From Candidatus Magasanikiibacteriota bacterium (lineage in GTDB: Bacteria > Patescibacteriota > Patescibacteriia > Magasanikbacterales > UBA922): a stretch of 64,000 bases of DNA. The notes beneath the pieces are model-generated. The model made no database searches and was not told the origin of the DNA. It saw only the letters and a list, made by a program, of their open reading frames with translations. The stretch spans positions 68-64,067 of the forward strand of contig JACQQA010000005.1 of assembly GCA_016207245.1 (NCBI GenBank). Reading direction: 5' to 3'. A program made the translations under genes and the position numbers. Positions 17,676 through 59,391 of the stretch are shown here, in pieces (positions within the stretch are counted from its first letter, which is position 1; each line of letters opens with the position of its first letter).

Positions 17676-18920
17676 ATGTCGGAAATCACCAAAGCGATTC
17701 AATTCATCTGCGACGAGAAGGGGCTAACCTTTGAGTCGGTAATGGAAGCGATTGAGGCCGCGATGTCCGCGGCTTATCGCAAGGACTTCGGCAATCGCCA
17801 GCAAAATGTCAAAGTAAAATTTGACCCGGAAACTATGGGCATGGAAGTTTGGGATGAAAAAGAAGTCGTGGAAGATATTGACGAAGAAATTTTGTTAAAA
17901 GCCCAAGAAGAATTAACTAAACGCCGCGAGGAAGCGCAGAAAGAAGGCCGCGAATTAACCGAAGAAGAGATGGCGGATTTGGCGCGCTTCAATCCAAAAA
18001 TGCAGATAATGATTACGCAAGCGAAAGAGCAGGTTAAGAAAGCCAAAGTCGGCGAGATTATAAAAATTAAGCTTGAAGTGCCGGGAGAGTTCGGCCGCAT
18101 GGCCGCGCAAACCGCCAAGCAGGTGGTCATCCAGCGTTTGCGCGAGGCGGAGAGAAATACCGTCTATGATGAACTTAAAGATCAGGTTGGAAATATTATC
18201 CATGGCATTGTCCAGCGCAGAGATCGCGCAGGCGCGATAATTATTGATTTGGGGAAAGCGACGGCAACACTGCCGGCAGAAGAACAGATTTACGGCGAAC
18301 AATATCGTCCGGGCGCGCGCATGCGGTTTTTAATTGAAAAAGTGGAAATGGGCCAGCGCGGTTTGGAAATTATTTTATCTCGCGCGGGCAAGAAAATGGT
18401 GGAAACGATTTTCGCCGAAGAAATTCCGGAGATTGGTTCCGGCGCGGTGGAAATCAAGGGTTTGGCGCGCGATGCCGGCCATCGTTCCAAAGTCGCGGTC
18501 TGGACAGGCGATGATTCCATCGACCCAATCGGCGCTTGTATTGGCCAGCGCGGTAGCCGCATTACCACGATTATTGAAGGATTGGGCGGAGAAAAAATTG
18601 ACGTGATTCAATTCAGCGATGACGCGGCTGAATATATTAAACACGCCTTATCTCCGGCCAAAGTTACCGCGGTGTCTTTAAATGAAGAGACGAAAGAGGC
18701 GGCGGTTTATGTCGCCGCGGATCAATTTTCTTTGGCTATCGGCCGCGGCGGGCAGAATGTTCGTTTGGCCGCGGAGCTGACCGGTTGGAAATTAAATGTA
18801 GTGCAGAATGAGGGGGAAGAAAAAATTGTGAGCAGCGATGATGTGGTTGAAACTCCGGAAGCAGTGGCAGGCGAGGAAGAAAAGGTGGTCGAGGAAGAAA
18901 AAAAGAGTGATGAATCATGA
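17676..18920 (+). CDS. nusA: transcription termination/antitermination factor NusA
   Basis: 414 aa. NusA N-domain, S1 domain and two KH domains (IGQRGSRI, IGRGGQNVRLA). Confidence 0.92.
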   Translation: MSEITKAIQFICDEKGLTFESVMEAIEAAMSAAYRKDFGNRQQNVKVKFDPETMGMEVWDEKEVVEDIDEEILLKAQEELTKRREEAQKEGRELTEEEMADLARFNPKMQIMITQAKEQVKKAKVGEIIKIKLEVPGEFGRMAAQTAKQVVIQRLREAERNTVYDELKDQVGNIIHGIVQRRDRAGAIIIDLGKATATLPAEEQIYGEQYRPGARMRFLIEKVEMGQRGLEIILSRAGKKMVETIFAEEIPEIGSGAVEIKGLARDAGHRSKVAVWTGDDSIDPIGACIGQRGSRITTIIEGLGGEKIDVIQFSDDAAEYIKHALSPAKVTAVSLNEETKEAAVYVAADQFSLAIGRGGQNVRLAAELTGWKLNVVQNEGEEKIVSSDDVVETPEAVAGEEEKVVEEEKKSDES

Positions 18921-18982
18921 ATTAAGAATAAGGGGCGATGACGACGGGCTGTTATCGAATGGAAAATTTTAGTGAGGCAATG

Positions 18983-19006
18983 ACCGTCCTGAGAGGGGCG
19001 GTTTTT
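18983..19006 (+). terminator. rho-independent terminator after nusA
   Basis: ACCGUCC-UGAGAG-GGGCGGU hairpin followed by UUUUU. Confidence 0.65.
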
Positions 19007-19105
19007 GTTGCGACTGGAATTATTTTGTGTTAGTATACTGTCAGGTTATTTAGGTCAGGAGTTTGGTTCGTTGTATCCTGCTATTTGTATTCTGAATTCT
19101 GAAGT

Positions 19106-19681
19106 ATGATTTCATATATTAAAGGCAAAATTCTAGAAAAAAGCGAGCGGTCGATTTTGGTATTGACTGAAGGTGGAGTTGGGTATGAAGTGTGTGCTCA
19201 AGTGTTAAAGTGCGCAAGTTTGCAAGTTGGCGAGAACGTGAACCTGTACACATATTTGCGTGTGGGAGAGAACGCGTTGGATTTGTTTGGGTTTGAAACC
19301 CTGGAAGAAAAAAGTTTTTTTGAGTTATTATTAACCGTCAGCGGGATCGGACCTAAGAGCGCCATGCATATTTTGGAATTAGGCAGTTTGGAAGAAATCA
19401 GCGCGGCGATCGGTCGGGGCGATGTTGATTATCTCACGAAAGTCAGCGGTATTGGCAAGAAGACGGCGGAGAGGGTGGTGGTTGAGTTGAAGTCCAAAGT
19501 CATAAAGTCCGTAAAGTCCACAAAGCTCGGTGATAGCGAAGTGTTGGGTGAAGCGATAGATGGACTGGTGTCTTTGGGTTACAGCCGTGAAGAAGCCCGC
19601 GAGGCAGTGAGGGATTTGCCGGTTGAGAGCAAAGACACTGGAAAATTAGTAAAAGAAGCGTTGAGAAAGTTGGGAAAGTGA
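19106..19681 (+). CDS. ruvA: Holliday junction DNA helicase subunit RuvA
   Basis: 191 aa. OB domain, then two HhH motifs (VSGIGPKSA, VSGIGKKTAERVV). The linker contains a word-repeat insert, KSKVIKSVKSTK. Confidence 0.9.
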   Translation: MISYIKGKILEKSERSILVLTEGGVGYEVCAQVLKCASLQVGENVNLYTYLRVGENALDLFGFETLEEKSFFELLLTVSGIGPKSAMHILELGSLEEISAAIGRGDVDYLTKVSGIGKKTAERVVVELKSKVIKSVKSTKLGDSEVLGEAIDGLVSLGYSREEAREAVRDLPVESKDTGKLVKEALRKLGK

Positions 19682-19682
19682 A

Positions 19683-22163
19683 TCACAGCAACGTCATGCT
19701 CGCCACTTTGTCGCCCTCTTCTTTAAATCTCATTACTCGCACGCCTTGAGTGGCGCGGCCGAGAGTGGAAATGGTATCAAGCGGGACGCGAATGACTTGG
19801 CCGTTTACCGAAATAGCCATTAAGTCGCGTTCTTCGGTGTTATTTATTATCGCCATGCTGATAATTTTTCCGGTTTTTGCCGTTACGGCCATAGTCTTGA
19901 TGCCGCTGCCGCCGCGGCCTTGCACTTTATATTCTGACAAAGCGGTGCGTTTTCCTAAACCGTTTTCTGAAATCACCAGCAATTCTAATACGGCTTTTTT
20001 CACCAATTCCGGCTGGACAATATCCATGCCCACGATATAATCTTTGCCTTTCAATCGCATACCGCGCACGCCGGAAGCGTTGCGGCCCATGGCGCGCACA
20101 TTGGCTTCTCTAAATCTAATCGCTTGTCCGCCGTCAGTGGCAATGACAATTTCGTCTTTGCCGGTTGACGGTTTGACCCACTCCAAATTATCATCAGGCT
20201 TCAATTTTAACGCGATCAAGCCGGAACGGCGTACATTGGAGAAATCAGATAGGGCGGTTTTTTTAATTGTGCCTTTGTTGGTCACCATTACCAAAAATTG
20301 GTGCTGATTCAAACTGCTCATTGACAGAATGGCGGAAAGTTTTTCATTCGGAGCGAGCTGGAGAAAATTTACCACTGCCTGTCCTTTGGAAGTGCGCGTG
20401 GCCGGAGGAATATCATAGGCCATCATTTGAAACACGCGGCCGCGAGTGGTGAAGAACAACAAATTATCATGAGTATTGGTGGTTAACAGTTGGTCAACGA
20501 CGTCTTCTTCTTTGGTCGTCAAACCAATCACGCCTTTGCCGCCGCGGCCTTGGGTTTTAAAAGTATCAGGCGCGACCCGTTTGATATAGCCGTCGCGAGT
20601 GGTCATGACCACGATTGATTCATTCGGGATCAAATCTTCAGTGGTAAATTCTTTTACGCCGTGGGCGACAATTTGGGTGCGGCGTTCGTCGCCGTATTTT
20701 TCTTTTATTTCTTTAATTTCGTTTGTTATTATATTTAAGATTTTTTTTGGGCTGTGCAAAATTGATTCCAATTCTTTTATCAGAGTGCGTTTCTCTTTTA
20801 ATTCATCCTCAATTTTTTGCCGCTCCAGATTCGCCAATTGTTGGAGTTTCATTTCCAAAATGGCGACTGCCTGCCGCTCGGTAAACTTGAATTTGCTCAT
20901 CAAGTTTATTTTGGCGTCGTCTTTATCTTTGGATTTGCGGATAGTGTTGATTACCAAATCAATTTTATCCAGCGCTTTGCTCAAACCCTCCAAAATGTGC
21001 GCGCGTTCTTGCGCTTTGTTTAAATCAAATTCAGCGCGGCGGCGAATGACTTCTTGACGGTGTTTCACGTATTCTTCCAATACCGATTTCAGATTAAGCA
21101 CGCGCGGCTGGATGCCGTCAACGAGCGCGAGCATGTTGATGTGAAAAGTCGTTTGTAATTCGGTCATGTTGAACAACTGGTTTAGCACTTTTTTCGGATA
21201 AGAATCTTTTTTCAGCTCAACCACGATGCGGACGCCGTCTTTGTTTGATTCATCGCGCAAGTCTTTGATGCCTTCAAGTTTTTTCTCCTGCACCAAGGTT
21301 GCGATTTTTTCAATCAGGGTTGATTTGTTAACTTGGTATGGGATTTCATTGACGACGATTTGGAACAAACCGGATTTATTTTCTTGAATATCAGTTTTAG
21401 CTCGAATGACGATTCCGCCTTTGCCGGTCGCGTAAGCCGCGGCAATGTCTTTGTTGTTGTAGATAATACCGCCGGTCGGGAAATCCGGGCCTTTGACCAG
21501 TTCCATCAATTCTTCAATCGTGATTTTCGGATCATTAATCAGCGCGGTAAGACCGTCGCAAAGTTCTGTTAAATTGTGCGGCGGGATATTTGTCGCCATG
21601 CCGACCGCGATGCCCATAGTGCCGTTTAACAACAGATTAGGGAGTTTGCTCGGCAAAACTATTGGTTCATTCGTTGAACCGTCATAGTTCGGCGCGAAGT
21701 TGACAGTGTTTCTTTCAATATCCAATAGCATTTCTTCCGCGATTGCTGACAACTTGGCTTCGGTGTAGCGCATGGCCGCGGCTGAATCTCCATCCATGGA
21801 ACCGAAGTTGCCTTGGCCATAAACCAAAGGGTTGCGCATGGCAAATTCTTGCGCCATTCTCACCATGGAATCATAAATCGCTGAGTCGCCGTGCGGATGG
21901 TATTTGGCCATCACTTCACCAACCACATGCGCGGATTTGCGAAATTTGGCATTGTGTTTCAAACCGATATTCCACATGGCGTAAAGAATGCGGCGATGCA
22001 CCGGCTTCAAACCATCTCGCACATCAGGCAAGGCGCGAGAAACAATCACGCTCATCGCGTAATCCATGTAGGATGTTTTCATTTCATCCACAAGAGCAAT
22101 CGGCTCCACTTTGCCGATAGGAGCCAGTATTAGTTTTTCTTGATTTGGTTTTGCGTCTTTCAT
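19683..22163 (-). CDS. gyrA: DNA gyrase subunit A
   Basis: 826 aa. [16 protein letters not shown], active-site [10 protein letters not shown], and C-terminal beta-pinwheel repeats. Confidence 0.95.
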
Positions 22164-22169
22164 ATTTTT

Positions 22170-22751
22170 TTACAATGATACTGCCGCGGGTTCTGTTGAC
22201 GACGCAGTTGTGCTGGTCGTTATGGCGTCTGGTAGATTTTTAACTTGTGTTATTAATAATTTAATATCGGTTTTGATTTTTTCTTTTATGGTTTCTTTTT
22301 TGTCAGTTGCGTCATCCGGCGCTCCCACCTCTTGCCACACCGTGCGCAGATCGTCTTTAACCGGGTCCGGTAGCCAGCCTTTGTCAGGCCCATTTCCTTG
22401 TGTGGCGTCGGTAATCAATACATACATATTCCAGCCCCACATACTGAAAATCACCAGACAGAATACTACCACTCCGGTCCACAACCAGCGCGTTTGACGC
22501 GGATCGTGGCGCATGCGCGCTTGGTTGTTAGAACGCGGCGCTTCCGGCTGGGTTTGGATTGGTTCCGGCGCTTGTTCAATCTCTGCGGCTCCTGTCTGCG
22601 GTTCAGGTTTTGATAAACGCACTCGCTCAACAATCAAGCCCGGCAGTTTTTCAACAGCTTTTCTAATATCTTGCCGCAAATTTTTTTTTGCTTTGCTCGC
22701 CTTACTTTTACCTCGCTTGACAGGCATACTATTGAAATTTTCAATTACCAA
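22170..22751 (-). CDS. hypothetical membrane protein
   Basis: 193 aa. Basic N-terminus, one TM helix (WLWTGVVVFCLVIFSMWGW). Directly downstream of gyrA on the same strand. Confidence 0.5.
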   Translation of the reverse strand: MVIENFNSMPVKRGKSKASKAKKNLRQDIRKAVEKLPGLIVERVRLSKPEPQTGAAEIEQAPEPIQTQPEAPRSNNQARMRHDPRQTRWLWTGVVVFCLVIFSMWGWNMYVLITDATQGNGPDKGWLPDPVKDDLRTVWQEVGAPDDATDKKETIKEKIKTDIKLLITQVKNLPDAITTSTTASSTEPAAVSL

Positions 22752-22771
22752 TTACCAATTTTCAAACTTCT

Positions 22772-29415: not shown

Positions 29416-30402
29416 TTATACCGTTCCGTTGTTTTTTTCAATAGCCGCCCAAATTTTCTCCAACGCTTCGTTAATTTCACCAGCGATTAAAAACCCCGAT
29501 GCTTTTTTGTGCCCGCCTCCGCCGAGAGTTGAGGCGATTAAAGAAACATCAAAATCATCGCGCGTAGTGCGGAAACTGCCTTTGATTTTTCCATCCCAAG
29601 TTTCTTTTAAAACCAGAGACGCGCGGCCTTCGTTAATGTTATTCAAAAAATTGGCAATGCCTTCGCTCTCGGTTTCGCTGGCGTTGTGCGTTTTCAAATC
29701 TTCAAGCGTAATAAAAGTATAGACAATATCAAGTTTTTCGTTTTTTGCTAAACGCGACAGGGCCACACCCCAGAGTTTCAGCGCTTCCATCGGTTTGTCG
29801 CGCAAAAACCAATTTTTAATCAGATTAAAATTGGCGCCATGGCGGATGAGTTCGCTGGCGACTTTCAGCGAGTGTTCGGTGGTGCCGGGATTGGAAAAAT
29901 TTTCCGTGTCAGTAATCAGGCCGGTCAAAAGCGCGAGCGCCATATTTTTACTGATCCCAATATTATTCTGGCGGAAGAAAAAATGCAAAACCTCGGCGGT
30001 TGAAGAGGCGGTCGGAATAACCAAATTATGATGGCCGAATTTTTTGTTGCTGATGTGGTGGTCAATATTTATAATAATTGTTCGCGGCGGCAAGTTTTTC
30101 GCCAGCGCCTCAACTCCGGCGTAATTCAAATCTCCGGAATCTAACACAATCACTACGTCGTATTCAGCCGTGTTCCAGATGTTTGGATCGGTTGAGATTT
30201 TAATCAGGTGCGGAAGATTAGCGAGGCGAGAGGTAATTGGGGTTAAACAAAAAGCGTCGTGCGGCTTGCCGATATTCCGCAGAAAATGCGAAAATGCCGA
30301 AACCGAGCCCATGGCATCGCCATCCGGCTTTTGGTGCGGCACGAGAAGAATTTTCTTCGCGTTCAAGATTTCATTGTGGATTTGTTTGGCGATTCGGTGC
30401 AT
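29416..30402 (-). CDS. nrnA: DHH-family phosphoesterase (NrnA-type oligoribonuclease/pAp phosphatase)
   Basis: 328 aa. Motifs HQKPDGDAMGS, VLDSGD, NIDHHISN and the DHHA1 GGGGH. Confidence 0.85.
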   Translation of the reverse strand: MHRIAKQIHNEILNAKKILLVPHQKPDGDAMGSVSAFSHFLRNIGKPHDAFCLTPITSRLANLPHLIKISTDPNIWNTAEYDVVIVLDSGDLNYAGVEALAKNLPPRTIIINIDHHISNKKFGHHNLVIPTASSTAEVLHFFFRQNNIGISKNMALALLTGLITDTENFSNPGTTEHSLKVASELIRHGANFNLIKNWFLRDKPMEALKLWGVALSRLAKNEKLDIVYTFITLEDLKTHNASETESEGIANFLNNINEGRASLVLKETWDGKIKGSFRTTRDDFDVSLIASTLGGGGHKKASGFLIAGEINEALEKIWAAIEKNNGTV

Positions 30403-30918: not shown

Positions 30919-31013
30919 ATATGTCCATTGAGTTTTCATGGTTCAAAATTATCAAGGCGTCTGATCGTTAGACAGGTATTTTAGTGCCCGCTAACTAATA
31001 TGGTCTCAAACCA

Positions 31014-31095
31014 GTCCCGTAGGGACGATAGATAGTAGCCAGGCCTTTTAAGGCCTGGGAACAGTTCATCACCAAAACAATAGCCCCGTAGGGGC
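31014..31095. repeat. cluster of REP-like GC hairpins
   Basis: gtcccgtagggac (31014-31026), ccaggccttttaaggcctgg (31039-31058) and gccccgtaggggc (31083-31095), immediately upstream of the transposase fragment. Confidence 0.65.
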
Positions 31096-31315: not shown

Positions 31316-34300
31316 ATGTTTCTAAAATCCATCGAACTTCATGGTTTCAAGTCCTTTGCCCAGAAGGCGATTTTGGATTTTGTGGCGCCTAAAGACGGGA
31401 AAAACAGTATTACCGGAATTGTTGGACCGAACGGGAGCGGGAAGAGCAATATCGCGGACGCGATCCGCTGGGTGATGGGAGAGCAGAGCATGAAAACTTT
31501 GCGCGGGAAAAAAGGCGAGGATATTATTTTTGGCGGTTCGGACGTCAAAGGCCAGATGGGCATGGCAAGCGTTACCATGATTTTGGACAACAGCGACCAC
31601 CGCGCGCCGATTGATTACGATGAATTGGCTGTAACCCGCCGTTATTATCGTTCCGGCGAGAGCGAATATTTAATCAATGGCAACGCGGTGCGGCTGTTGG
31701 ATTTACAAATTCTCTTGGCTCAAGCTCAATTCGGACAAGGCGCTTACAGCGTTATCGGGCAGGGAATGATTGACCACTTGCTTTTGCACACGCCGCCGGA
31801 ACGAAAAGCGTTTTTTGACGAGGCGGCTGGAATTAAAGAATTTCAGATCAAACGACATCAAGCAATTTTGAAATTATCGCGCACCAAAGAAAATATCACG
31901 CAGGCGGAAATGCTGTTAACAGAAGTTGAACCGCGATTGCGGACATTGTCGCGTCAAGTGAAAAGATTGGAACGGCGGCAGGAAGTGGAAGTGGAATTGC
32001 GCGAGACGCAGGAACAATATTTTTTTACTTTATTTTCGCACAACCATGAACAATTGTCAGTATTAAACGCCGAATTGATTAAAATTGAAGAGGAATATAA
32101 TATTGCGCGTGATCATCTGCAAACTTTACAAAATGAATTGGCGGCTTTAGCCAAAGAAGGTTCGCGGCAAGAACAATTTGTTGTCTTGCAAAATGAATAT
32201 CAAGATTTATCGCGGCAAAAAAATCAACTTGAACGGGAACGCGCGATATTGCAAGGAAAATTACAGACGGAATATTCTAAGGTCGGGAAACAAAATATCG
32301 GTTGGCTGGAAAATAAAATTGAAACATTAAAAACGGTGGTGGATAAAGCAACGCGCGAATTAAAAACAGCGGAATCGACGGTGGAGGAAACCAGCGCGGA
32401 AATTTTAGCCAAAAAACAACAGATGGATAAATTGTTGGTTGAAAAAACTGAGGCAAATGGCCAACTGGCAAATTATGAGCAAAGTTTAACGCAATTAAAA
32501 GGCGAACAATCATATTGGCAATACGCCGGATTAAAAGCCGTGCAAGCGGTGTTGGAAGAACGGCACCGATTGGGCGCGATTTACGGCACGGTGGCGCAAT
32601 TGGGCGAGGTGGATGAGAAATATCGTTTGGCTTTGGATGTGGCGGCGGCCTCGCATTTGTCATCGGTTGTCGTGGATAGCGATCGCACGGCGCAGGCTTG
32701 CATTGAATATCTGCGCCAGCACCAGTTGGGGGTGGCGACGTTTTTGCCATTGAACAAAATCAAATCGCGTTTAGTCGCGAATGATATTCAAGATTTAACC
32801 AACCACGACGGCGTGTTTGGTTTAGCATCCGAGCTCGTATCTTTTGACAGCCGGTTCGCGGATATTTTTTCTTACGCGTTAGGCAACACTCTTATTGTGC
32901 GCGATTTGGAAATCGCGCGAGAAATCGGTATCGGTCGGATTCGCATGGTAACTTTGGCCGGCGATATTTTGGAAACCAGCGGCAGTATGAAAGGCGGTTA
33001 CCGGCAGGCGGAAAAGCGCCGCGGGCTTGGTTTTTCACAGGGAAGCTCGCCATATCTTTTGCAAAATAATATTTTGGACAGCGAGGAAAAAATGACTGAA
33101 TTGCAAAATCGTTTAACGCAAATTGAAACTGATTTGGCGCAAGCGCAGGCCGAGCTCACCACTTGCCAATCCGGCGCGCAGGTTGCAACCAGCCGAGTGG
33201 ATATTTTAGGTACGGCTAAACAGGAAACCGATCGGGAGCTGGCCATGTTGGAACAAGAGCTGTCGCTTTGCGCCATGAGTCCGGAGGAATTCAACGCCAG
33301 TTTGAAGACAATCGCGAATCAAAAAGAAGAATCAGATCAATCAATTGTTGGTTTAGACAAAAAATTAGAGTTAATTCAAAAAAAGATTGCCGCGTTTAAT
33401 AATGAAGAAGAAAAAAAGAAACAACGGATTTTTTCTTTGCAAGACGCGATGCAGGGCAAACAAGAAAAAGTCAATAAGATTATTGAAGCTAAAAATTTGA
33501 AAAAAATAGAAGCCGCCAAATTAGACACCAAGTTGGAGGACTTGACCAATGAGATTTATCAAGAAATTCAAACTACGCCGGATTCTTTGCGCGAGCGCGG
33601 GATTCAAATTTTATTGCCGCGAGATTTGGAAGAGGCGCAGGTTAAGATTCAAAAATTAAAATACCAGCTGAGTTTAATCGGCGGCATTGACGAAGAAGTC
33701 GCGGGGGAGTATAAAGAAACAAAGGAAAAATACGAACACCTAACCGCGCAATTGGCTGATTTGAGTAAAGCTTTTGCGGATTTGGAGCAAATGGTTGTTG
33801 AGCTTGATGAGTTGATGAAAAAAAAGCGCGGGAAAGCGTTTAAAGAAATTCAGAAAGAATTCGCGCGCTATTTTGCCATGTTGTTTGAAGGCGGAAAAGC
33901 CGAATTGGTTGAGTTGTATGGGGAGGAAGCATCCGCGGATATTGCCGAGACGCAGATAGACGCGGAGCTGGTTAATCAGGTTAATGGTGAAAGCGCGGGC
34001 GAGGAATTGGTAAATAAAAAGAAGAAACAGATTTTATTAGGCATAGATATTGTTGCTTGTCCGCCCGGGAAAAAGATTAAAAATATCCACGCTTTATCCG
34101 GTGGGGAGCGCACCATGACATCAATCGCTTTGGTCTGCGCGATTTTGCACACCAATCCATCGCCGTTTGTCGTTTTAGATGAGGTGGAAGCGGCGTTGGA
34201 TGAAACCAATACCATGCGTCTAAACCGCATTTTGCATGAATTATCTTACAAATCACAATTTATTTTAATTACCCACAATCGCGCCACCATGCACGCGGCC

Positions 34301-34387
34301 GACGCTCTCTATGGCGTAACTATGGGCGAGAGCGGTGTCAGCCAGCTGGTGAGCGTTAAACTTAATGACGCGGTAAAAGCATTATGA
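31316..34387 (+). CDS. smc: chromosome segregation protein SMC
   Basis: 1023 aa. Walker A GPNGSGKSN, long coiled coils, a hinge, signature LSGGE, and Walker B VLDEVEAALD. Confidence 0.93.
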   Translation: MFLKSIELHGFKSFAQKAILDFVAPKDGKNSITGIVGPNGSGKSNIADAIRWVMGEQSMKTLRGKKGEDIIFGGSDVKGQMGMASVTMILDNSDHRAPIDYDELAVTRRYYRSGESEYLINGNAVRLLDLQILLAQAQFGQGAYSVIGQGMIDHLLLHTPPERKAFFDEAAGIKEFQIKRHQAILKLSRTKENITQAEMLLTEVEPRLRTLSRQVKRLERRQEVEVELRETQEQYFFTLFSHNHEQLSVLNAELIKIEEEYNIARDHLQTLQNELAALAKEGSRQEQFVVLQNEYQDLSRQKNQLERERAILQGKLQTEYSKVGKQNIGWLENKIETLKTVVDKATRELKTAESTVEETSAEILAKKQQMDKLLVEKTEANGQLANYEQSLTQLKGEQSYWQYAGLKAVQAVLEERHRLGAIYGTVAQLGEVDEKYRLALDVAAASHLSSVVVDSDRTAQACIEYLRQHQLGVATFLPLNKIKSRLVANDIQDLTNHDGVFGLASELVSFDSRFADIFSYALGNTLIVRDLEIAREIGIGRIRMVTLAGDILETSGSMKGGYRQAEKRRGLGFSQGSSPYLLQNNILDSEEKMTELQNRLTQIETDLAQAQAELTTCQSGAQVATSRVDILGTAKQETDRELAMLEQELSLCAMSPEEFNASLKTIANQKEESDQSIVGLDKKLELIQKKIAAFNNEEEKKKQRIFSLQDAMQGKQEKVNKIIEAKNLKKIEAAKLDTKLEDLTNEIYQEIQTTPDSLRERGIQILLPRDLEEAQVKIQKLKYQLSLIGGIDEEVAGEYKETKEKYEHLTAQLADLSKAFADLEQMVVELDELMKKKRGKAFKEIQKEFARYFAMLFEGGKAELVELYGEEASADIAETQIDAELVNQVNGESAGEELVNKKKKQILLGIDIVACPPGKKIKNIHALSGGERTMTSIALVCAILHTNPSPFVVLDEVEAALDETNTMRLNRILHELSYKSQFILITHNRATMHAADALYGVTMGESGVSQLVSVKLNDAVKAL

Positions 34388-39156: not shown

Positions 39157-39830
39157 ACCCCAGTTTTTAGTTTTAAAGGGTTGAAGTCTGTATCTCTGTC
39201 ATAATAATCCACTTCTTCTTTCTTTTTCAACCAACCGACAACGCGATATGTGACTGGCAGGAGAATTATTTCCACCAGAATTTTGAAAATATAATTTGAT
39301 ACCCAGATAATCCAAATTAAATTCCACGGCAGGACGCCGGCGAAGGCGATGAGGAGAAAGACAGTGGTGTCAAAAAATTGGCCGACGACAGTTGAGCCAA
39401 TCGCTCGCAGCCAAAGAAATTTTCCCTGTGTTTTTATTTTTATCTTCGCCAACACATAACTGTTCAAAAATTCTCCGATTAAATACGCGCACAAACTTCC
39501 CAGCACGATTCTTGGCACCACGCCAAGGATTGATTCAAACGCGGCTTGATTACCCCAGTCCAGCGTCGGCGGGAGTTTTTGCACCACCCAGAAAGTAATC
39601 ACCATCAGCAAATTCATCGCGAAGCCGATCCAGATGACGCGCCGGGCGCGGGCGTAGCCATACACTTCGGTCAAGATATCGCCGAAGATGTAGGCGAGAG
39701 GAAATAAAATCGTCCCGCCGTCAAAACTGAACCAGCCGAGCGATAATATTTTTGTGCTGGCGATGTTTGATAAAATTAGCACAACAGCGAAAGCAGTGGT
39801 GATGAGATCGAGGTGTTTGTAGGGCTTCAT
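39153..39830 (-). CDS. yhhQ: queuosine precursor transporter (YhhQ/DUF165, VUT family)
   Basis: 225 aa, polytopic. FDGGTILFPLAYIFGDILTEVYGYARARRVIW. Confidence 0.85.
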   Translation of the reverse strand: MKPYKHLDLITTAFAVVLILSNIASTKILSLGWFSFDGGTILFPLAYIFGDILTEVYGYARARRVIWIGFAMNLLMVITFWVVQKLPPTLDWGNQAAFESILGVVPRIVLGSLCAYLIGEFLNSYVLAKIKIKTQGKFLWLRAIGSTVVGQFFDTTVFLLIAFAGVLPWNLIWIIWVSNYIFKILVEIILLPVTYRVVGWLKKKEEVDYYDRDTDFNPLKLKTGV

Positions 39831-39896
39831 ATTGCTAGATTGTTTAATTGTTATATTGCTAAATTGTTATGCGGATTATAGCATAATTTGTCCGGG

Positions 39897-40838: not shown

Positions 40839-42092
<1,254 letters not shown>

Positions 42093-42236: not shown

Positions 42237-42998
42237 ATGAGAAGATATTGGCTGATAAATTTGACCTGTGTTATTTTGAGCGCGGGTTTTTTGTTTGGGA
42301 CGGCGCGGGTGTGGAGGGGGGAGAGCGAAGTAAATTATGAAGCGGAGTTGGGGGTGATGAAGAATGAAGTTGAAAATGTAAAAATCAAAATGGAAAATAA
42401 AGACGATGCCGTTTTACCATTGCAGTATCTTTTACCTGTCCCTTTCACTTCCCAAGCGCCGGAGAAAAATTGGGATCAGCCATGGCAAGACGCGTGCGAG
42501 GAAGCGGCGGTTCTAATGTTGGACGCGTACCATAAAGGATATGGCTTAAGTCCGTTGTTCGCGAAAGATGAAATTTTAAAGATGATTGACGCAGAAGAAA
42601 AGTTGGGATGGGGCACAAGTATTGAAATAGAAAAAGTGAAGGGGTTGGTTGAGCGGTTTGTTTCACTTGATCACTCCATCACACCATCACCACATCACGC
42701 GCGAATTGTTGAGAATCCGACGGTGGAAGATATTAAAAAATTTATTGCTAACGGACAACCGGTGCTGGTTGTGGCAGACGGAAAAGTCTTGCCGAATTCG
42801 CATTTTAGAAACGGCGGGCCGGTGTATCACGCGCTGATTATCCGCGGTTACACAGGAACCGAATTCATCACCAACGACCCCGGAACGCAGTTCGGCAGGG
42901 GATTTAAATATAAGTATGAAGATTTATTAAACGCCGTTCATGATTGGAACGGCGGGGATGTGAAAAACGGAAAGCGCGTGGTGCTAGTTGTTGAGTGA
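42237..42998 (+). CDS. peptidase C39-like domain protein (PF13529-like)
   Basis: 253 aa. N-terminal TM helix. VPFTSQAPEKNWDQPWQDACEEAAVLM with the candidate catalytic Cys, and a later His in YHALIIRGY. An atcac-word insert lies at 42669-42698. Confidence 0.65.
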   Translation: MRRYWLINLTCVILSAGFLFGTARVWRGESEVNYEAELGVMKNEVENVKIKMENKDDAVLPLQYLLPVPFTSQAPEKNWDQPWQDACEEAAVLMLDAYHKGYGLSPLFAKDEILKMIDAEEKLGWGTSIEIEKVKGLVERFVSLDHSITPSPHHARIVENPTVEDIKKFIANGQPVLVVADGKVLPNSHFRNGGPVYHALIIRGYTGTEFITNDPGTQFGRGFKYKYEDLLNAVHDWNGGDVKNGKRVVLVVE

Positions 42999-47923: not shown

Positions 47924-48643
47924 ATGCGCGAGTTGTTTCAGACGGTCTTAACCCAGCCGATGTTTAACGCTTTTGTCGGGTTGTATAATTTGATTCCGGA
48001 CGTCGGCGTGGTGATTTTGATTATCACGGTTTTAATTAAAGTCGCCTTGTACCCGCTGACGGCGTCATCAATCAAATCGCAAAAAGCTTTGACGGATCTT
48101 CAGCCGAAATTGGACACGATTAAAAAAGAGCATAAAGGCGACCAGCAGAGATTGGCGCAAGAGACGATGAAGCTGTACAAAGAAAACAAAGTCAATCCGA
48201 TGGCGTCTTGTTTGCCGCTGTTGATTCAATTGCCGATTTTAATCGCGCTATACTATGTTTTGCGCTCCGGGTTAACCGGCAATAATTTTGACACGCTTTA
48301 TTCGTTCGTTAAAAATCCGGGTCAAATCAACACGGTTTCTTTGGGTCTGGTTGATTTAAAAAACGCGAATATTATCCTTGCGGTTTTGGCCGGCGCGTCG
48401 CAGTTTTGGCAGACTAAAATGATGATGCGCAAAAAAGCGCCGAAAGAAGCCGGCGAAGGCGCGAAGGACGAGAATATGATGAGCATGATGAACAAGCAGA
48501 TGCTGTATTTTATGCCGGTGATGACGGTGTTTATCGGTTTGAAACTGCCCGGCGGGCTGACGCTCTATTGGCTGTTGTCAACGGTGTTGACCGTGGCGCA
48601 GCAGGCGATTGTGTTTAAAAATAAATTAACAATTAACAATTAA
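47924..48643 (+). CDS. yidC: membrane protein insertase YidC (short, Oxa1-like form)
   Basis: ATG at 47924. LYPLTASSIKSQKAL..LQPK, MKLYKENKVNPMASCLPLLIQLPILIALY, and GGLTLYWLLS. Confidence 0.9.
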   Translation: MRELFQTVLTQPMFNAFVGLYNLIPDVGVVILIITVLIKVALYPLTASSIKSQKALTDLQPKLDTIKKEHKGDQQRLAQETMKLYKENKVNPMASCLPLLIQLPILIALYYVLRSGLTGNNFDTLYSFVKNPGQINTVSLGLVDLKNANIILAVLAGASQFWQTKMMMRKKAPKEAGEGAKDENMMSMMNKQMLYFMPVMTVFIGLKLPGGLTLYWLLSTVLTVAQQAIVFKNKLTINN

Positions 48644-48692
48644 CGGCGGATTCCACGAGTTGTTAGTTGTTCTTTGTTAATTGCTAATTTTT

Positions 48693-50804: not shown

Positions 50805-52313
50805 ATGATATTTCAAACAAAGAGAATTGATTTAGAATCCACTCTCTGTTTTTTTCTAAAGAGCTTCTTATTCCTGTTTCCTTGGCAGACGATCTGGATT
50901 TATCGCGAGATTTTCGTTAACGGAGTGAAAATGGAATACGCGACACTGGGTTTTTATGCGACGGAGATTTTGTTGTGGGCGGCGGTTTTGTTGTTTATTG
51001 TTTGGTACTGGAAAAAATGGAAAAGGGAAAAATCAAAATGGAAAATACGATTTCGGTTGACCAAAGATAGGATTTTCATCACCGCGTGTTTATCTCTTAT
51101 CTCTTATCTTTTTATCTCCATTGTTTGGTCTCCGGATAAATCTTTGGCTTTACAGCAATCTTTGCGCGTCATGGAAGCGTTCCTGTTGTTTTTTATATTC
51201 ACTCTCGGCCCACTGAAGTTCAACGAGGCGGTGAAGTGGTTGGCTTTGGGCGCGGTTCTGCCGAGCATGTTGGGCATTTGGCAGTTTTTTTCTCAATCAA
51301 CTTTCGCTTTCAAGTGGTTGGGGTTGGCCGAGCATATTGTCTCAAACCCGGGCGCTTCGGTGATTGTCGGGGATGAAATCGGCCGTTGGCTAAGGTCGTA
51401 TGGGCCGTTCGCGCATCCGAATGTGTTGGGGGGATATGCGGCTATGGTAATTGTTTTGATGCTGCTAAAATTAAAAGACTGTAAGGCTTGTCCTGAGCAG
51501 AGCCGAAGGACTGAAAGATTACCATTTTATTTATTTATCTCTTATCTTTTATCTCTTATCTTTATTATTTCCGTTATTTTTTTCTCTTTCAGCCGGTCGG
51601 CGTTGTTGGCCTTGATAATTATTATATTGTTAAATTGTTATATTGTTTTTAAACAGAAAAAATTTTCTTATCTTCCTTCGGCTGCCCTCGATTCCCCTCG
51701 GGACGGGTCGCTCAGGACAAGCCTATCTCTTATCTCCTGCCTGATTTTACCAATTATTATTCTATCCGTTCTTTTATTCCCCGCGCTGAAGACTCGTGTC
51801 ACCGTGTCTTCCTCGTATGAAGTCGCTTCGGTTGTCGAACGCGCGCAAGGATTTAACGAGGGTTGGGAAATTTTTAAAGACAACAAATGGCTCGGAGTCG
51901 GCGCCGGGAATTATATCGCGTATTTGCAAAAAATTGACCCGGATCGCCAATCGTGGGAATACCAGCCGGTACATAACGCGGGTTTACTCTTACTTGCAGA
52001 AATGGGGCTATTTGGCGTGGCGTTATTGTTTTTTGTTTTGTTATCTCTTATCTCTTTTCTCTTTTCTCTTGTTACGAATCAGGAATCACAGGTTGACGCG
52101 TGTAAGCGTAGTAGGAAAATCACTGTGTTCTGTTATCTGCCTGCCCGCCATCGGCTGCGCCATCAGGTGCTGGCAGGCGGGTGTTCTGTATTCTGCTATT
52201 TCGTCCTCGCTTTCTTTGATCACTATTTAATTTCATCATACACCGGATTGATTCTAACCGGTATTTTCTTTGGTTTGGCATTAAAACACAGTCGGGAAGT
52301 TGTCCCCAGTTAA
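50805..52313 (+). CDS. O-antigen ligase / Wzy_C family membrane protein
   Basis: 502 aa, polytopic. FSRSALLAL and HNAGLLLLAEMGLFG blocks. Carries several in-frame repeat words. Confidence 0.75.
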   Translation: MIFQTKRIDLESTLCFFLKSFLFLFPWQTIWIYREIFVNGVKMEYATLGFYATEILLWAAVLLFIVWYWKKWKREKSKWKIRFRLTKDRIFITACLSLISYLFISIVWSPDKSLALQQSLRVMEAFLLFFIFTLGPLKFNEAVKWLALGAVLPSMLGIWQFFSQSTFAFKWLGLAEHIVSNPGASVIVGDEIGRWLRSYGPFAHPNVLGGYAAMVIVLMLLKLKDCKACPEQSRRTERLPFYLFISYLLSLIFIISVIFFSFSRSALLALIIIILLNCYIVFKQKKFSYLPSAALDSPRDGSLRTSLSLISCLILPIIILSVLLFPALKTRVTVSSSYEVASVVERAQGFNEGWEIFKDNKWLGVGAGNYIAYLQKIDPDRQSWEYQPVHNAGLLLLAEMGLFGVALLFFVLLSLISFLFSLVTNQESQVDACKRSRKITVFCYLPARHRLRHQVLAGGCSVFCYFVLAFFDHYLISSYTGLILTGIFFGLALKHSREVVPS

Positions 52314-52370
52314 TCCACCGCGCGTTGAAATTGGTTTGTTTTTAGCCAAGTTTTTTTGTTAATTTTTCTC

Positions 52371-52399
52371 TTGACACTGGTTATTTTATCAAGCATAAT
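52371..52399 (+). promoter_or_regulatory. sigma70 promoter (TTGACA-17-CATAAT) facing the structured RNA locus
   Basis: TTGACA at 52371-52376, a 17-nt spacer, CATAAT at 52394-52399. No protein ORF lies downstream on this strand for about 680 nt. Confidence 0.7.
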
Positions 52400-52405
52400 A
52401 GATGT

Positions 52406-52958
52406 GTAGAACGCAGGGAGCCAACTCGGGGTTGGTGGTCTGCGAATGATGGCGCACCGTTGGATACCAGATTCAAGTCGGGTGGCTTGCGGAAGAAACT
52501 GAATAAGCCCAGGGTTGGCGACAGGCGCGTTGTACGCGGCAGAGATTTCGTGTTACTGACAGGCATCATGAAATCATAACTGCACGGTACTTTGAGCTTG
52601 TCTCCTACTTTGGGCTTTTTTGAATAGTATAGATAAGTCCCGCCATGGCGGGATAAAGCCCGCCTTCGTCCCGCCGTGGCGGGACTACGGCGAGGCAAGG
52701 CCCGCGGGAGGAGAGAAGTTTTCCCCGTATTAGCGGGGAGCTACCCCCCAAACAAAAACCTATCTTATGGGTAGTTTGCACCTCCGGTGCCCCGTGGCAT
52801 AACTTGCTATGTTGGTGAGGCAGATGTTGGTTTCCCGGCCTGCGGCCTAAAAAGTCGTTTCGGCCACAAAAGCTGGACTTGTCGGAAAGACAAAATTCCG
52901 GCCCCATATCTGTTATCTAGAATATGGCAAGCCGCAAAGCCGCGGGGTTTTGTTTTTG
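52406..52958. ncRNA. large structured ncRNA, tentatively RNase P RNA; strand unresolved
   Basis: About 550 nt with no credible ORF, but dense with GC hairpins and a four-way junction (52775-78/52867-70, 52779-82/52814-17, 52820-43, 52844-65). Read on the minus strand, ACAAGUCCAGC, GGGAAACC, CAACAUAGCAAG, CACCGGAGGUGCAAAC..AUAGG and GACUUGAAUCUGGUAUCC resemble RNase P CR-I, L9, CR-II, CR-III and CR-V in the correct order. The promoter, the U-run terminator (52927-52958), a closing helix GGGGUUGG/CCGGCCCC and G-U pairs all favour the plus strand. Confidence 0.45.
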
Positions 52959-53027
52959 TGTAAAAATAGCAATTAACAATTAGCAATTAACAACGAATGC
53001 GGGTGTGGATATGTGGGGGCTTGACAT

Positions 53028-53054
53028 TTATCACTCAATAATATAGAGTGATAA
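53028..53054 (+). promoter_or_regulatory. CIRCE-like HrcA operator overlapping the groES promoter
   Basis: TTATCACTC-N9-GAGTGATAA versus the consensus TTAGCACTC-N9-GAGTGCTAA (one symmetric change). TTGACA at 53021-53026 lies immediately upstream. Confidence 0.8.
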
Positions 53055-53082
53055 AGGATTTACTAATTAATTATTGTGTTTT

Positions 53083-55132
<2,050 letters not shown>

Positions 55133-56567: not shown

Positions 56568-57698
56568 ATGGAAATGCACGAATTGGTAAAATCATTGGAA
56601 GCGCTGGATCAAAAGCTTGCTGAAATCAAACTGATGTTAAGGTTGCCGGAAAAAAAGAATGAGATTCAATTATTAGAAGCGGAAGTGAACGCGCCGGGTT
56701 TTTGGTCTGATCAAAAAAAAGCGGTGGAAAAAAGCCAGAAGCTGGGCTGGCTGAAAGAAGAAAAAGAACACTGGGGAAAGCTGTCAAAAGAAATAAAAGA
56801 TTTGTTGGAAATGGCGAAATTAGACGAAGCGGATAAAGAGGTGAATTTGCGGGAAGAAATTGAAAAACAATATCAATCATTAAATAAACAAGTTGGCGAA
56901 TTGGAATTTAATACTTTGATGTCAGAAAAATATGACAGTCAGAACGCTATCGTTGCCATTCACTCCGGCAGTGGAGGAACAGAAGCGCAGGATTGGGCGG
57001 AAATGCTTTTGCGGATGTATTTGAAATATTGCGAGAGCAAAAAATGGAAAACGCAAATGCTGGACGAAACCAGGGGACAGGAGGCAGGCATTAAGTCCGC
57101 GGTATTTAGAGTGGCTGGCGGCGCTCAGGGCGGGTTCGTTTACGGCCATTTGAAGTCAGAACACGGCACGCATCGGCTGGTGCGCGTCTCGCCGTTTGAC
57201 GCGGAAAAAATGCGCCACACTTCGTTCGCGCTGGTTGAGGTAATTCCGGAAATGGAGGAAACGCCGGATATTGATATTGACCCAAAAGATTTACGGATAG
57301 ACACTTTTATGTCCGGCGGAAAAGGCGGACAGAGCGTGAATACCACTTATTCCGCGGTTCGCGTTGTTCATATTCCAACCGGCATCACCGTGCAGTGCCA
57401 AAACGAACGTTCGCAATTGCAAAATAAAGAAACCGCGCTGAAAGTTTTGAAATCAAAATTGCAGAAATTAAAAGATGAAAAAGAGGATGAGGAAAAACAA
57501 AAACTCCGCGGGGAATACAAAAGCCCGGAATGGGGGAGCCAGATTCGTTCTTATGTTTTGCATCCGTATCATTTGGTCAAAGATTTGCGGACGGATTATG
57601 AGACAACGGATGATAAGAGTGTGTTGGAAGGGGAATTAGATAATTTTGTGGAGGCGTATTTGAGATGGCTTCGCACACATCATCACATCACCACTTAA
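56568..57698 (+). CDS. prfB: peptide chain release factor 2 (single uninterrupted ORF)
   Basis: 376 aa. SPF tripeptide (RVSPFDA) and GGQ (SGGKGGQSVNTT). No in-frame UGA frameshift site. Confidence 0.93.
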   Translation: MEMHELVKSLEALDQKLAEIKLMLRLPEKKNEIQLLEAEVNAPGFWSDQKKAVEKSQKLGWLKEEKEHWGKLSKEIKDLLEMAKLDEADKEVNLREEIEKQYQSLNKQVGELEFNTLMSEKYDSQNAIVAIHSGSGGTEAQDWAEMLLRMYLKYCESKKWKTQMLDETRGQEAGIKSAVFRVAGGAQGGFVYGHLKSEHGTHRLVRVSPFDAEKMRHTSFALVEVIPEMEETPDIDIDPKDLRIDTFMSGGKGGQSVNTTYSAVRVVHIPTGITVQCQNERSQLQNKETALKVLKSKLQKLKDEKEDEEKQKLRGEYKSPEWGSQIRSYVLHPYHLVKDLRTDYETTDDKSVLEGELDNFVEAYLRWLRTHHHITT

Positions 57699-57729
57699 TC
57701 ACATCATCACTTTTGCGATACTTACGACT

Positions 57730-58482: not shown

Positions 58483-59391
58483 ATGTTAGATATAACCAAA
58501 CCTTCTGTTTTGCAAGAACTTTGTAAGCAATACAGGCTTACCCCATCCAAGGGCTATGGTCAGAATTTTTTGATTACCGACGCGCCGATTAAAAAGATGA
58601 TTGAAGCCGCGGAATTAAAAGCGAGCGACATCGTCGTTGAAATTGGGCCCGGGTTTGGCGTGTTGACGTTCGCGTTGGCGGAGAGAGTGAAGAAAGTGAT
58701 AGCGTTTGAGATAGAGAGGAAGTTGGCGGGATATTGGAGCGACTTGGAGATAAGAGGAGATAGGGAGATAAATAGAGATAAAATTGAGATAGTGTGGGGT
58801 AACGCGCTTAATAAGATACAAGATACAAGTAACAAGATACAAAAATACAAGGTGATTGCGAATTTGCCGTATCAGATCACTTCTGATGTATTGCGGACGT
58901 TGTTAGAGCTGGAAAACAAGCCGGAGCTAATCGTCATTATGGTTCAGAAAGAAGTGGCGGAGAGAATTTGCGCTCAGCCCCCTTCGGCTCGCCATACTCG
59001 CTCAGGGCAGGCAGGCAACATGAGTCTGTTGTCAGTCGCGGTGCAGTATTATGGGGAGCCAAAGATTATTGCCAAAGTACCGGCCGGGAGTTTTTGGCCG
59101 AGACCGAAAGTGGAGAGCGCGATTGTGCGAATCACTTTATCACGTGATCACTGCATCACCACATCACTACATCACGACGACGAGAGAGAAAGAGAATTTT
59201 TTAGAGTTGTTAGAGCTGGGTTCGCGCAAAAGAGGAAACAGTTGTGGAATAATTTGGCGAAGGGATTAAAATTGGACGGCGGCAAAGTTAAGGCGGTTTT
59301 GCGCGAGGTGGTGGGAAATGAGAAAGTGAGGGCGGAGGAGGTGAGTGTTGAGGAGTGGAGAGTGATAGTTGGAAAGTTAGAAAGTTTTTAA
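58483..59391 (+). CDS. rsmA: 16S rRNA (adenine1518/1519-N6)-dimethyltransferase RsmA/KsgA
   Basis: GQNFL, VVEIGPGFGVLT and NLPYQITS. ATG at 58483. Contains at least three repeat-word inserts. Confidence 0.9.
   Translation: MLDITKPSVLQELCKQYRLTPSKGYGQNFLITDAPIKKMIEAAELKASDIVVEIGPGFGVLTFALAERVKKVIAFEIERKLAGYWSDLEIRGDREINRDKIEIVWGNALNKIQDTSNKIQKYKVIANLPYQITSDVLRTLLELENKPELIVIMVQKEVAERICAQPPSARHTRSGQAGNMSLLSVAVQYYGEPKIIAKVPAGSFWPRPKVESAIVRITLSRDHCITTSLHHDDEREREFFRVVRAGFAQKRKQLWNNLAKGLKLDGGKVKAVLREVVGNEKVRAEEVSVEEWRVIVGKLESF

Follow-up and report, generated by a model that had tools for sequence, protein, structure and literature searches.

The antisense RNAs of the IS10 RNA-OUT/RNA-IN, plasmid R1 CopA/CopT and hok/Sok systems are built on a common plan, i.e., a long bulged hairpin which ends in a U-run and whose loop is complementary to the start region of its target, and a U-turn motif (YUNR) has been described for antisense recognition loops. 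A second group, the Hfq-independent trans-acting small RNAs (sRNAs) such as Staphylococcus RNAIII and the RsaE-type RNAs, possesses an own promoter, a terminator and a short seed which is exposed towards the initiation region of the target. Features of both groups are found in an RNA locus (52371-52958) of Candidatus Magasanikiibacteriota bacterium (assembly GCA_016207245.1, contig JACQQA010000005.1, positions 68-64,067), which belongs to the Candidate Phyla Radiation (CPR, Patescibacteria), that is to uncultivated bacteria with very small genomes. All coordinates given here are positions within this 64,000-nt stretch, which in its full length is termed the window. As judged from its sequence and that of its relatives, the locus is a plus-strand, non-coding, structured RNA gene with predicted independent transcription, and its core, a rod-shaped hairpin, represents what appears to be a previously undescribed family that is not contained in Rfam 15 and was found here only in Magasanikbacteria-type CPR genomes. 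The family occurs in a short and in a long form, the latter being present in the window. It is suggested, with a probability of roughly 0.6, that the rod functions as a trans-acting antisense sRNA which would occlude the start codon of a gene that is located just upstream of gyrA and encodes a membrane protein of 185 aa.

Comparison with the cis-encoded, fully complementary RNAs of IS10, plasmid R1 and hok/Sok reveals clear differences, as the window RNA and its proposed target are separated by ~30 kb and share 10 complementary bases, and as the family is chromosomal, kept across a CPR lineage and, unlike RNA-OUT, CopA and Sok, not part of a mobile element. The CUGA of the window loop would nonetheless fit the YUNR motif. 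To RNAIII and the RsaE-type RNAs no sequence or model similarity was found; these consist of several hairpins, whereas the window RNA has a single rod which is accompanied by ~335 nt of extra domains, and its proposed seed covers the AUG itself and not the Shine-Dalgarno (SD) sequence. In the literature searched neither a description of the window RNA nor of large or trans-acting RNAs in CPR was found, and to our knowledge no trans-acting sRNA-target pair has been described for CPR/Patescibacteria, hence the rod and its start-codon site are a candidate for the first riboregulator-target pair in this group.

Homologous genome loci were gathered via GroES and metagenome loci via the loop motif. 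The covariance model R1, which was built from 15 sequences, detects the rod in 50 Magasanikbacteria loci with 43 distinct sequences and, together with the promoter, the following core features were assigned:

52371-52399, plus strand: sigma-70-type promoter TTGACA-17-CATAAT, predicted transcription start near 52405
52505-52617, plus strand: conserved rod hairpin of ~113 nt, the core sRNA, which in most genomes is the whole gene (covariance model, covariation)
52537-52541 with 52582-52586, plus strand: invariant internal motif consisting of C-G, two covarying pairs and an invariant unpaired A, the bulged A being 52584
52553-52566, plus strand: 14-nt apical loop UUACUGACAGGCAU with the proposed seed UGACAGGCAU (52557-52566) and the invariant 9-mer GACAGGCAU (52558-52566), as derived from the 43-sequence alignment
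52616-52621, plus strand: U-run directly after the rod, conserved in all rods, predicted to terminate the short form and, in the long form, to be an internal terminator which polymerase has to pass

In an independent MAFFT alignment, 93% of the rod cells are paired and 34/39 pairs change on both sides, a result that was reached by 0/500 shuffles, while partner-slid controls pair to 34-45%. A 9-bp helix (52544-52552/52567-52575) had been recognized by an original prediction made for this locus; it was identified as the apical stem of the rod, and 9/9 of its pairs change on both sides. Exposed on this covariation-supported stem, the loop 9-mer GACAGGCAU is invariant in 43/43 distinct rods and so is GACAGGCAT within the apical loop. 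A second invariant patch locates to the middle of the stem, where 43/43 sequences agree in the pairs formed by columns 35-92 and 36-91 of the alignment and the neighbouring pairs 37-89 and 38-88 covary. Upstream of the rod, at a distance of 5-130 nt, a promoter of the type TTGACA-16/18-xAxxxT was found in 49/50 homologous loci, thus confirming the promoter that had been predicted for the window, which scores 11/12 in a consensus scan.

The invariant loop GACAGGCAU is the exact complement of AUGCCUGUC, i.e., of AUG followed by CCUGUC at the start of a gene, and the proposed target comprises the following features, whereby ATGCCTGTC denotes the target-start string (the complement of the rod loop at the ortholog start) and GACACCCAU a hypothetical mutant version of the loop sequence GACAGGCAU:

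22718-22727, minus strand: proposed target site AUGCCUGUCA, which spans the start codon of the 185-aa gene and the 7 nt behind it, exact complement of loop 52557-52566
22170-22727, minus strand: proposed target gene encoding a 185-aa hypothetical single-pass membrane protein, ending 6 nt before gyrA (19683-22163, minus strand)

Within the window, the site at 22718-22727 (minus strand) is the single other occurrence of the loop complement. The target gene apparently shares an operon with gyrA, and the gene order Lactamase_B_3, 185-aa gene, gyrA was found in the window and also in L137 and L138; for the encoded protein no Pfam or NCBIfam family match was obtained. With AUGCCUGUCA the loop is predicted to form a duplex of 10 bp and -16.7 kcal/mol. 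The DNA of 13 distinct target orthologs was compared, 10 of which have the exact sequence ATGCCTGTCAA, including five at 27-35% protein identity whose flanks are unrelated. In two further orthologs a single C-to-T exchange has turned the Pro codon CCT into CTT (Leu) or TCT (Ser), respectively, which alters the amino acid, whereas pairing with the loop G is kept as G·U and the predicted duplex energies amount to -14.0 and -14.0 kcal/mol, and one ortholog has lost the N-terminus and with it the site (~0 kcal/mol). At the target start Pro is encoded by CCT in 10/10 and Val by GTC in 12/12 cases. A codon control carried out with the same orthologs revealed that, out of 34 invariant residues whose codons are 4-fold degenerate or more, only 3 are mono-codon, Val3 (GTC) being among them, and in the most conserved protein motif the invariant residues V, L, P and G use 4, 5, 3 and 4 codons, respectively. 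The near-complementary site within groEL (53654) served as negative control; it varies freely at synonymous positions in 31 loci, and groEL was rejected as target. Other loop-complementary sites do not recur across ~430 kb of homologous loci. We estimate at ~0.4% the chance that, among the ~60 genes of such a window, one would begin with ATG and continue precisely with CCTGTCA. Taken together, the locus combines an independent unit with predicted promoter and terminator of its own, an exposed and conserved seed, and a complementary site which is conserved beyond coding constraint, as is characteristic for trans-acting sRNAs.

The mechanism suggested for the rod assumes that transcription from the near-consensus promoter to the U-run would yield an sRNA presenting (U)GACAGGCAU in its 14-nt apical loop. 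In the cell, this loop would pair with AUGCCUGUC(A), i.e., the start codon plus the next 6-7 nt of the target mRNA, and thus formed duplex would block translation initiation and possibly also lower the expression of the closely following gyrA. Several points weigh against this assignment. The number of loop complements in the window is at chance level and the target site ranks 8th in energy among 1,592 candidate starts of the window (z = -2.9); the case for the target therefore rests on conservation. In 5/25 orthologs the protein begins differently (MKKK in two, MTLK, MKKS and MPEK), with only P0008 having been checked at the DNA level, while a sixth ortholog (P0005) has a shorter called start, and the conservation of the MPVKK N-terminus could in part be due to constraint at the protein level. 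The co-occurrence of rod and target in one genome was shown for the window only, and both isoforms, like the ends of the transcript, are predicted ones. Finally, antisense pairing leaves unexplained the double-stranded invariant motif (CG pairs, bulged A), the conserved 3' domains of the long form including GGAGGAGA/ACCUCC, and the tight synteny with a Wzy_C-like gene (45/50 loci) and with groES.

Some of these properties would be expected if the rod were a protein-binding RNA, i.e., the scaffold of a small ribonucleoprotein with a 4.5S/signal recognition particle (SRP)- or Y RNA-like shape, for which the complementarity to the start codon would be coincidental or secondary. The rigid rod of ~50 bp carries two separate invariant patches, one of which is double-stranded and hence cannot be a pairing seed, the near-consensus promoter suggests high expression, and the fixed genomic place resembles that of a housekeeping gene. 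With 4.5S, 6S and RNase P RNA the window RNA shares general features only, namely small size, stability, a strong promoter and, as for 4.5S RNA, a rod of similar length; the motifs of domain IV in SRP RNA, the large bubble in the centre of 6S RNA and the P4/conserved region (CR) elements of RNase P RNA are absent or not conserved. Neither SRP, 6S nor other known models match the rod and no candidate partner protein was identified. Furthermore, protein binding leaves unexplained that a start-codon complement is kept at synonymous sites down to 27% identity. A scaffold function is hence considered unlikely.

The original prediction had proposed a structured non-coding RNA gene of ~550 nt, which is borne out by the promoter, the fold, the covariation and frame-breaking indels, and had considered the strand signals contradictory, which they are not. 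Read as plus strand, 95.5% of the rod alignment pairs canonically, as compared to 83.4% for the minus strand, and in the 43 distinct rod sequences 226 G·U cells are opposed by 25 A·C cells; for the 3' extension of the long form the respective numbers are 41 and 6. As G·U cells far exceed A·C cells, the RNA was assigned to the plus strand, in line with the covariation of the rod pairs among related loci. The plus-strand fold has an energy of -243 kcal/mol (z = -7.6 versus shuffles) and that of the minus strand -199 kcal/mol (z = -4.4). Coding potential was considered and rejected: the two minus-strand open reading frames (ORFs) at the locus are without Pfam match, 9/10 indels relative to the closest relative L001 break the reading frame, and no conserved ORF follows the SD-like sequence GGAGGAGA. 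The earlier statement that no credible ORF exists was thus confirmed, and on our own reading of the sequences the apparent short ORFs near GGAGGAGA seem to be covarying hairpins. The locus is single-copy within the window.

On the minus strand, short strings resembling CR-I, CR-II, CR-III and CR-V of RNase P RNA occur in the expected order, which had led to the suggestion of a divergent bacterial RNase P RNA encoded there. These strings do exist as letters, but relatives have not kept them: most of the CR-V-like string (52463-52486) falls within a 38-nt insertion that L001 and L114 lack, and the CR-I-like string (plus-strand GCTGGACTTGT, 52872-52882) differs in both. Covariance models for RNase P, transfer-messenger RNA (tmRNA), SRP and 6S RNA gave no match to 52200-53100 on either strand at E<=10, a result which the original prediction had named as one half of what would refute it, and an Rfam 15 scan of the whole window at the gathering threshold revealed no family at the RNA locus and no RNase P RNA match anywhere in the window. 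Likewise, among 11 homologous loci of both architectures no RNase P, SRP, 6S, tmRNA or other Rfam family was detected at E<=5, the matches obtained being scattered noise, and ARAGORN identified no tRNA or tmRNA gene in the window. Next to the strand assignment, which opposes the RNase P reading, the size of the element is of importance, as in ~30/50 loci the ~120-nt rod stands alone between its promoter and the groES promoter. The element is unlike RNase P RNA because most carrier genomes have a ~120-nt hairpin only, which is far too small. Altogether, an RNase P identity is judged to be next to impossible, and a false lead was thereby removed. The helix by which the original prediction had closed the RNA (52428-52435 with 52898-52905) did not withstand comparison either, as its 8 pairs are complete in the window only, whereas the two closest relatives form 6 of them and the other long forms 2-5. 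Regarding size, the long form resembles the OLE, GOLLD and ROOL RNAs, which are unusually large, multi-domain conserved non-coding RNAs; it differs from them by being built around a small sRNA core which is found alone in most genomes, and the covariance models of OLE, GOLLD, ROOL and HEARO yielded no match at the window locus or at 11 homologous loci.

Comparison of the loci revealed how the two architectures are organized. In the short form (~30 loci), 10-50 nt separate the rod from the end of a TTGACA-17-xAxAAT promoter, giving a compact sRNA gene of ~120 nt, and the groES promoter follows ~45-230 nt after the U-run. The long form is represented by ten distinct sequences including that of the window, with a total length of 456-771 nt, in which a leader of 65-130 nt precedes the rod and a 3' extension of 270-520 nt follows it, ending in a GGGGUUUUUUG-type terminator. 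This terminal terminator is present in ten/ten long forms and a recognisable promoter in all but L102. Leader and 3' extension co-occur across the loci. The locus provides a natural pair of a short and a long architecture, in which the leader strand appears to disarm the internal terminator. The long form of the window was dissected as follows:

52405-52957, plus strand: predicted full-length transcript of ~553 nt consisting of leader, rod, 3' extension and terminator (fold, homologs)
52420-52433, plus strand: leader strand L5 GCCAACUCGGGGUU, which either folds with 52431-52436 into a small local hairpin or pairs over 14 bp with the rod 5' basal strand 52506-52519
52441-52478, plus strand: window-specific leader insertion of 38 nt, absent from L001 and L114 in the alignment
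52623-52700, plus strand: lineage-specific GC-rich insertion, absent in L001 and with one unit in L114; within the window its motif occurs only here
52704-52788, plus strand: domain C, closed by GGAGG (52707-52711) with CCUCC (52781-52785) and enclosing the hairpins 52722-52739 and 52740-52775 (consensus fold of window, L001 and L114)
52789-52948, plus strand: domain D, long and branched (~160 nt), closed by GCCCCGUGG (52789-52797) with CCGCGGGGU (52940-52948)
52948-52957, plus strand: terminal U-run UUUUGUUUUU; ten/ten long forms finish in GGGGUUUUUUG-type sequences

The leader strand L5 is complementary to the base of the rod, whereby 13-14/14 bp are formed in 9/10 long forms and 98.4% of the cells pair, as compared to 26-56% in slid controls. 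Three pairs show G-C to A-U compensation, while the rod 3' strand stays invariant and absorbs the changes as G·U. In 9/9 long forms tested, the minimum-energy fold of the nascent transcript contains the leader-rod helix before the rod 3' strand exists, and once this strand has been made the fold switches to the rod by 0.8-15.5 kcal/mol. The long form thus contains two conserved helices that exclude each other, one of them being the stem of an intrinsic terminator, and this is the arrangement of a terminator and its antiterminator. It was therefore suggested that L5 probably is a kinetic antiterminator: during synthesis, the leader strand 52420-52433 would pair with the rod 5' base and delay formation of the terminator stem, upon which polymerase would read through the internal U-run and add the ~335-nt two-domain extension up to the second terminator. 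Such an action of the leader would account for the fact that leader and extension are always found together. Against this role speaks that it builds on thermodynamic prediction for nine sequences and that the leader-rod helix could as well belong to the final fold. In having two mutually exclusive helices that compete for the rod 5' basal strand, one of them completing a terminator, the long form resembles the expression platforms of riboswitches and attenuators. It differs from these in that the competing strand lies upstream in a variable leader, in that what follows the switch is more non-coding RNA instead of a regulated gene, and in that the switch may be kinetic and constitutive. Between its two pairing strands the leader is variable in length and sequence, and no conserved pocket that could bind a ligand was seen in the long forms.

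The rod 3' basal strand UGAGCUUGUCUCCUACUUUGGGCUUUUUUG (52592-52622) is almost invariant among the ten long forms, of which no more than two carry a single change each, and short forms vary this strand freely and with compensation. This near-invariance suggests an extra constraint on the long forms, candidates for which are an alternative pairing of UUGUCUC with GAGGCAG (52817-52823) or of UCUCC with GGAGA in GGAGGAGA, each with one-sided support only. The invariant motifs of the rod could furthermore serve as a possible sensor of the long-form attenuator.

The 3' extension of the window (~335 nt) is structured and consists of two domains, C and D. When the ten long forms are folded one by one, GGAGG of domain C in most cases pairs with a CCUCC-like strand, and the SD-like sequence GGAGGAGA is invariant in ten/ten of them. 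The closing helix of domain D forms 7-8/8 bp in 9/10 long forms, L090 being misaligned by one base, and covaries over the ten sequences with 8 further pair types, while within the window clade (window, L001 and L114) domain D shows four compensatory pairs. The terminator 3' strand is part of this closing helix. As for the plus-strand terminator of the original prediction, the U-run (52948-52957) therefore stands, and the local hairpin stem does not, since 52940-52948 pairs with 52789-52797 in a covarying manner. The extra GC-rich hairpins cccgccatggcggg and cccgccgtggcggg were likewise correctly recognized as an insertion, which is lineage-specific, and incorrectly as a possible dispersed repeat: an origin from a dispersed repeat or a miniature inverted-repeat transposable element was rejected, as the motif is found in the window only at this single-copy locus. 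In the plus-strand fold, the two CCCGCC..GGCGGG units (52638-52653 and 52670-52685) form jointly one hairpin of ~19 bp.

Whether insertion and domains (52623-52957) belong to the same transcript as the rod has to be considered, since the rod closes in a good intrinsic terminator, as would be expected if the extension was a separate RNA gene located downstream of the rod sRNA, and since the extension is made of self-contained domains. A promoter scan, however, revealed no promoter-like site between rod and extension, and the extension is present only where a leader with a rod-complementary strand is present too, a leader that is predicted to pre-empt the terminator stem. A separate gene is for this reason regarded as improbable.

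In this Candidatus Magasanikbacteria (CPR/Patescibacteria) genome, the RNA locus resides in a 770-nt gap between a gene for a Wzy_C/O-antigen-ligase-like membrane protein (50805-52313, plus strand) upstream and groES-groEL (53083 onward, plus strand) downstream, the window GroES being 96% identical to that encoded on the contig MFQN01000032 of a metagenome-assembled genome. Among the homologous loci, the Wzy_C-like gene is found upstream on the same strand in 45/50 and groES immediately downstream on the same strand in ~35/50, while groES does not follow in L082, L113, L119, L094, L087 and L120; several long forms are among the loci lacking it. The downstream boundary of the RNA gene is given by the following feature, the arrangement of which is also present in homologous loci after the U-run:

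53021-53049 (promoter) and 53028-53054 (repeat), plus strand: groES promoter TTGACA-17-TAGAGT, overlapping an inverted repeat TTATCACTC-N9-GAGTGATAA which resembles the controlling inverted repeat of chaperone expression (CIRCE) (promoter scan, sequence)

The consensus of CIRCE, the HrcA operator, is TTAGCACTC-N9-GAGTGCTAA, of which the repeat in the window is a variant. The position of the rod immediately upstream of groES raises the idea of a cis-acting attenuator, e.g., a heat- or ligand-sensitive terminator, which would control read-through from the strong promoter into groES-groEL, and the facts that the base of the rod doubles as the stem of a terminator and that long forms possess a competing helix would suit such a device. 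Yet between the U-run and groES lie a separate promoter for this gene and a CIRCE-like operator, the long forms terminate in a second strong terminator, and several loci are without groES downstream. The GC-rich stem base followed by 6 U moreover resembles an efficient terminator, and attenuation leaves the invariant loop sequence unexplained, so that control of groES by the rod is deemed very improbable.

Upstream of the RNA promoter, between it and the Wzy_C-like gene, TTGG..N..CCAA (TTGGCTAAAATTAGCCAA-like in relatives) forms a small inverted repeat with a T-run behind it (52331-52357); this element is kept across the loci and probably constitutes the terminator of the upstream gene. In the short-rod locus L009 (3310-3560), the spacer before groES amounts to 694 nt and contains a ~150-nt tandem duplication in which GAGGCCAAAGGCCGATTGACAAATCCCGCATACCCC... 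occurs twice, and further downstream of it a tRNA-like or tmRNA-like 3' segment, GGTTCAACTCCCCCTCGCTCCACCA.

Further upstream, possible sites for a regulator were identified:

52300-52318, plus strand: TTGTCCCCA and TTAATCCAC, a pair of direct repeats resembling DnaA boxes, ahead of the RNA promoter

Across 40 loci, 2.1 same-orientation DnaA-box-like repeats per 110 nt were counted upstream of the -35 box, the background being 0.17, and at least two boxes are present in 77.5% of these loci as compared to 1.25% of the background windows. Such arrays, which closely precede the sRNA promoter, consist of 2-4 same-orientation TTATCCACA-like repeats spaced ~10-11 bp apart. Over its full length, too, the window is enriched for the DnaA-box-like motif (34 versus 13.8 expected), which often locates near -35 boxes, as for instance at 53004-53012 just before the groES promoter. 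A replication origin, an idea arising from these repeats, was rejected, as the GC skew stays positive from one end of the window to the other and almost all genes lie on one strand. A more far-reaching interpretation of the long form, which is put forward as a doubtful possibility, views it as a modular large RNA of 456-771 nt in which the leader antiterminator would decide on the addition of two domains, one of them closed by the SD-like GGAGGAGA and the anti-SD-like ACCUCC, and in which the DnaA-box-like array would tie transcription to the replication initiator. If true, a circuit leading from DnaA via the RNA to the gyrase operon would exist in an ultra-small CPR genome. Returning to the antisense reading of the rod, the locus provides a covariation-supported RNA family together with a specific proposed target, i.e., the start codon of the gene next to gyrA.

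Regarding the surroundings of this proposed target, a leaderless target mRNA was considered, and the upstream regions were found to be too variable to place a promoter. Directly upstream of the gene lies one set of AT-rich repeats with a period of 8 bp (AATTGTTA/CAATTAAC/AATTGGTA; 22741-22765, minus strand), as is also the case in L131 and L133. These repeats recur in many intergenic regions, further sets being located at 52968-52995, 48609-48651, 39830-39878, 41691-41739 and 51617-51649, and could be promoter-associated elements. A second repeat family with 8-bp period, containing ATCAC (e.g., TCACNNNATCAC), was found at 42655-42706, 57675-57718 and 59124-59183.

Elsewhere in the window, a seemingly second groEL-like gene near 18.5 kb (17676-19681) was dismissed, as the genes in question are those for NusA and RuvA and the similarity is by chance. 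A perfect 30-nt direct duplication is present at 60412-60441 and 60449-60478 (37 nt start to start), each copy of which contains the hairpin TTCCCGCTTTCGCGGGAA. The only Rfam match obtained for the window is an Acido-Lenti-1 RNA at 31013-31058 on the minus strand (45.9 bits, gathering score 37, E = 3.4e-07), which is flanked on one side by a DHH/DHHA1 gene (29416-30402, minus strand) and on the other by an SMC gene (31316-34387, plus strand) and which, being located in a CPR genome, may extend the known range of this motif.

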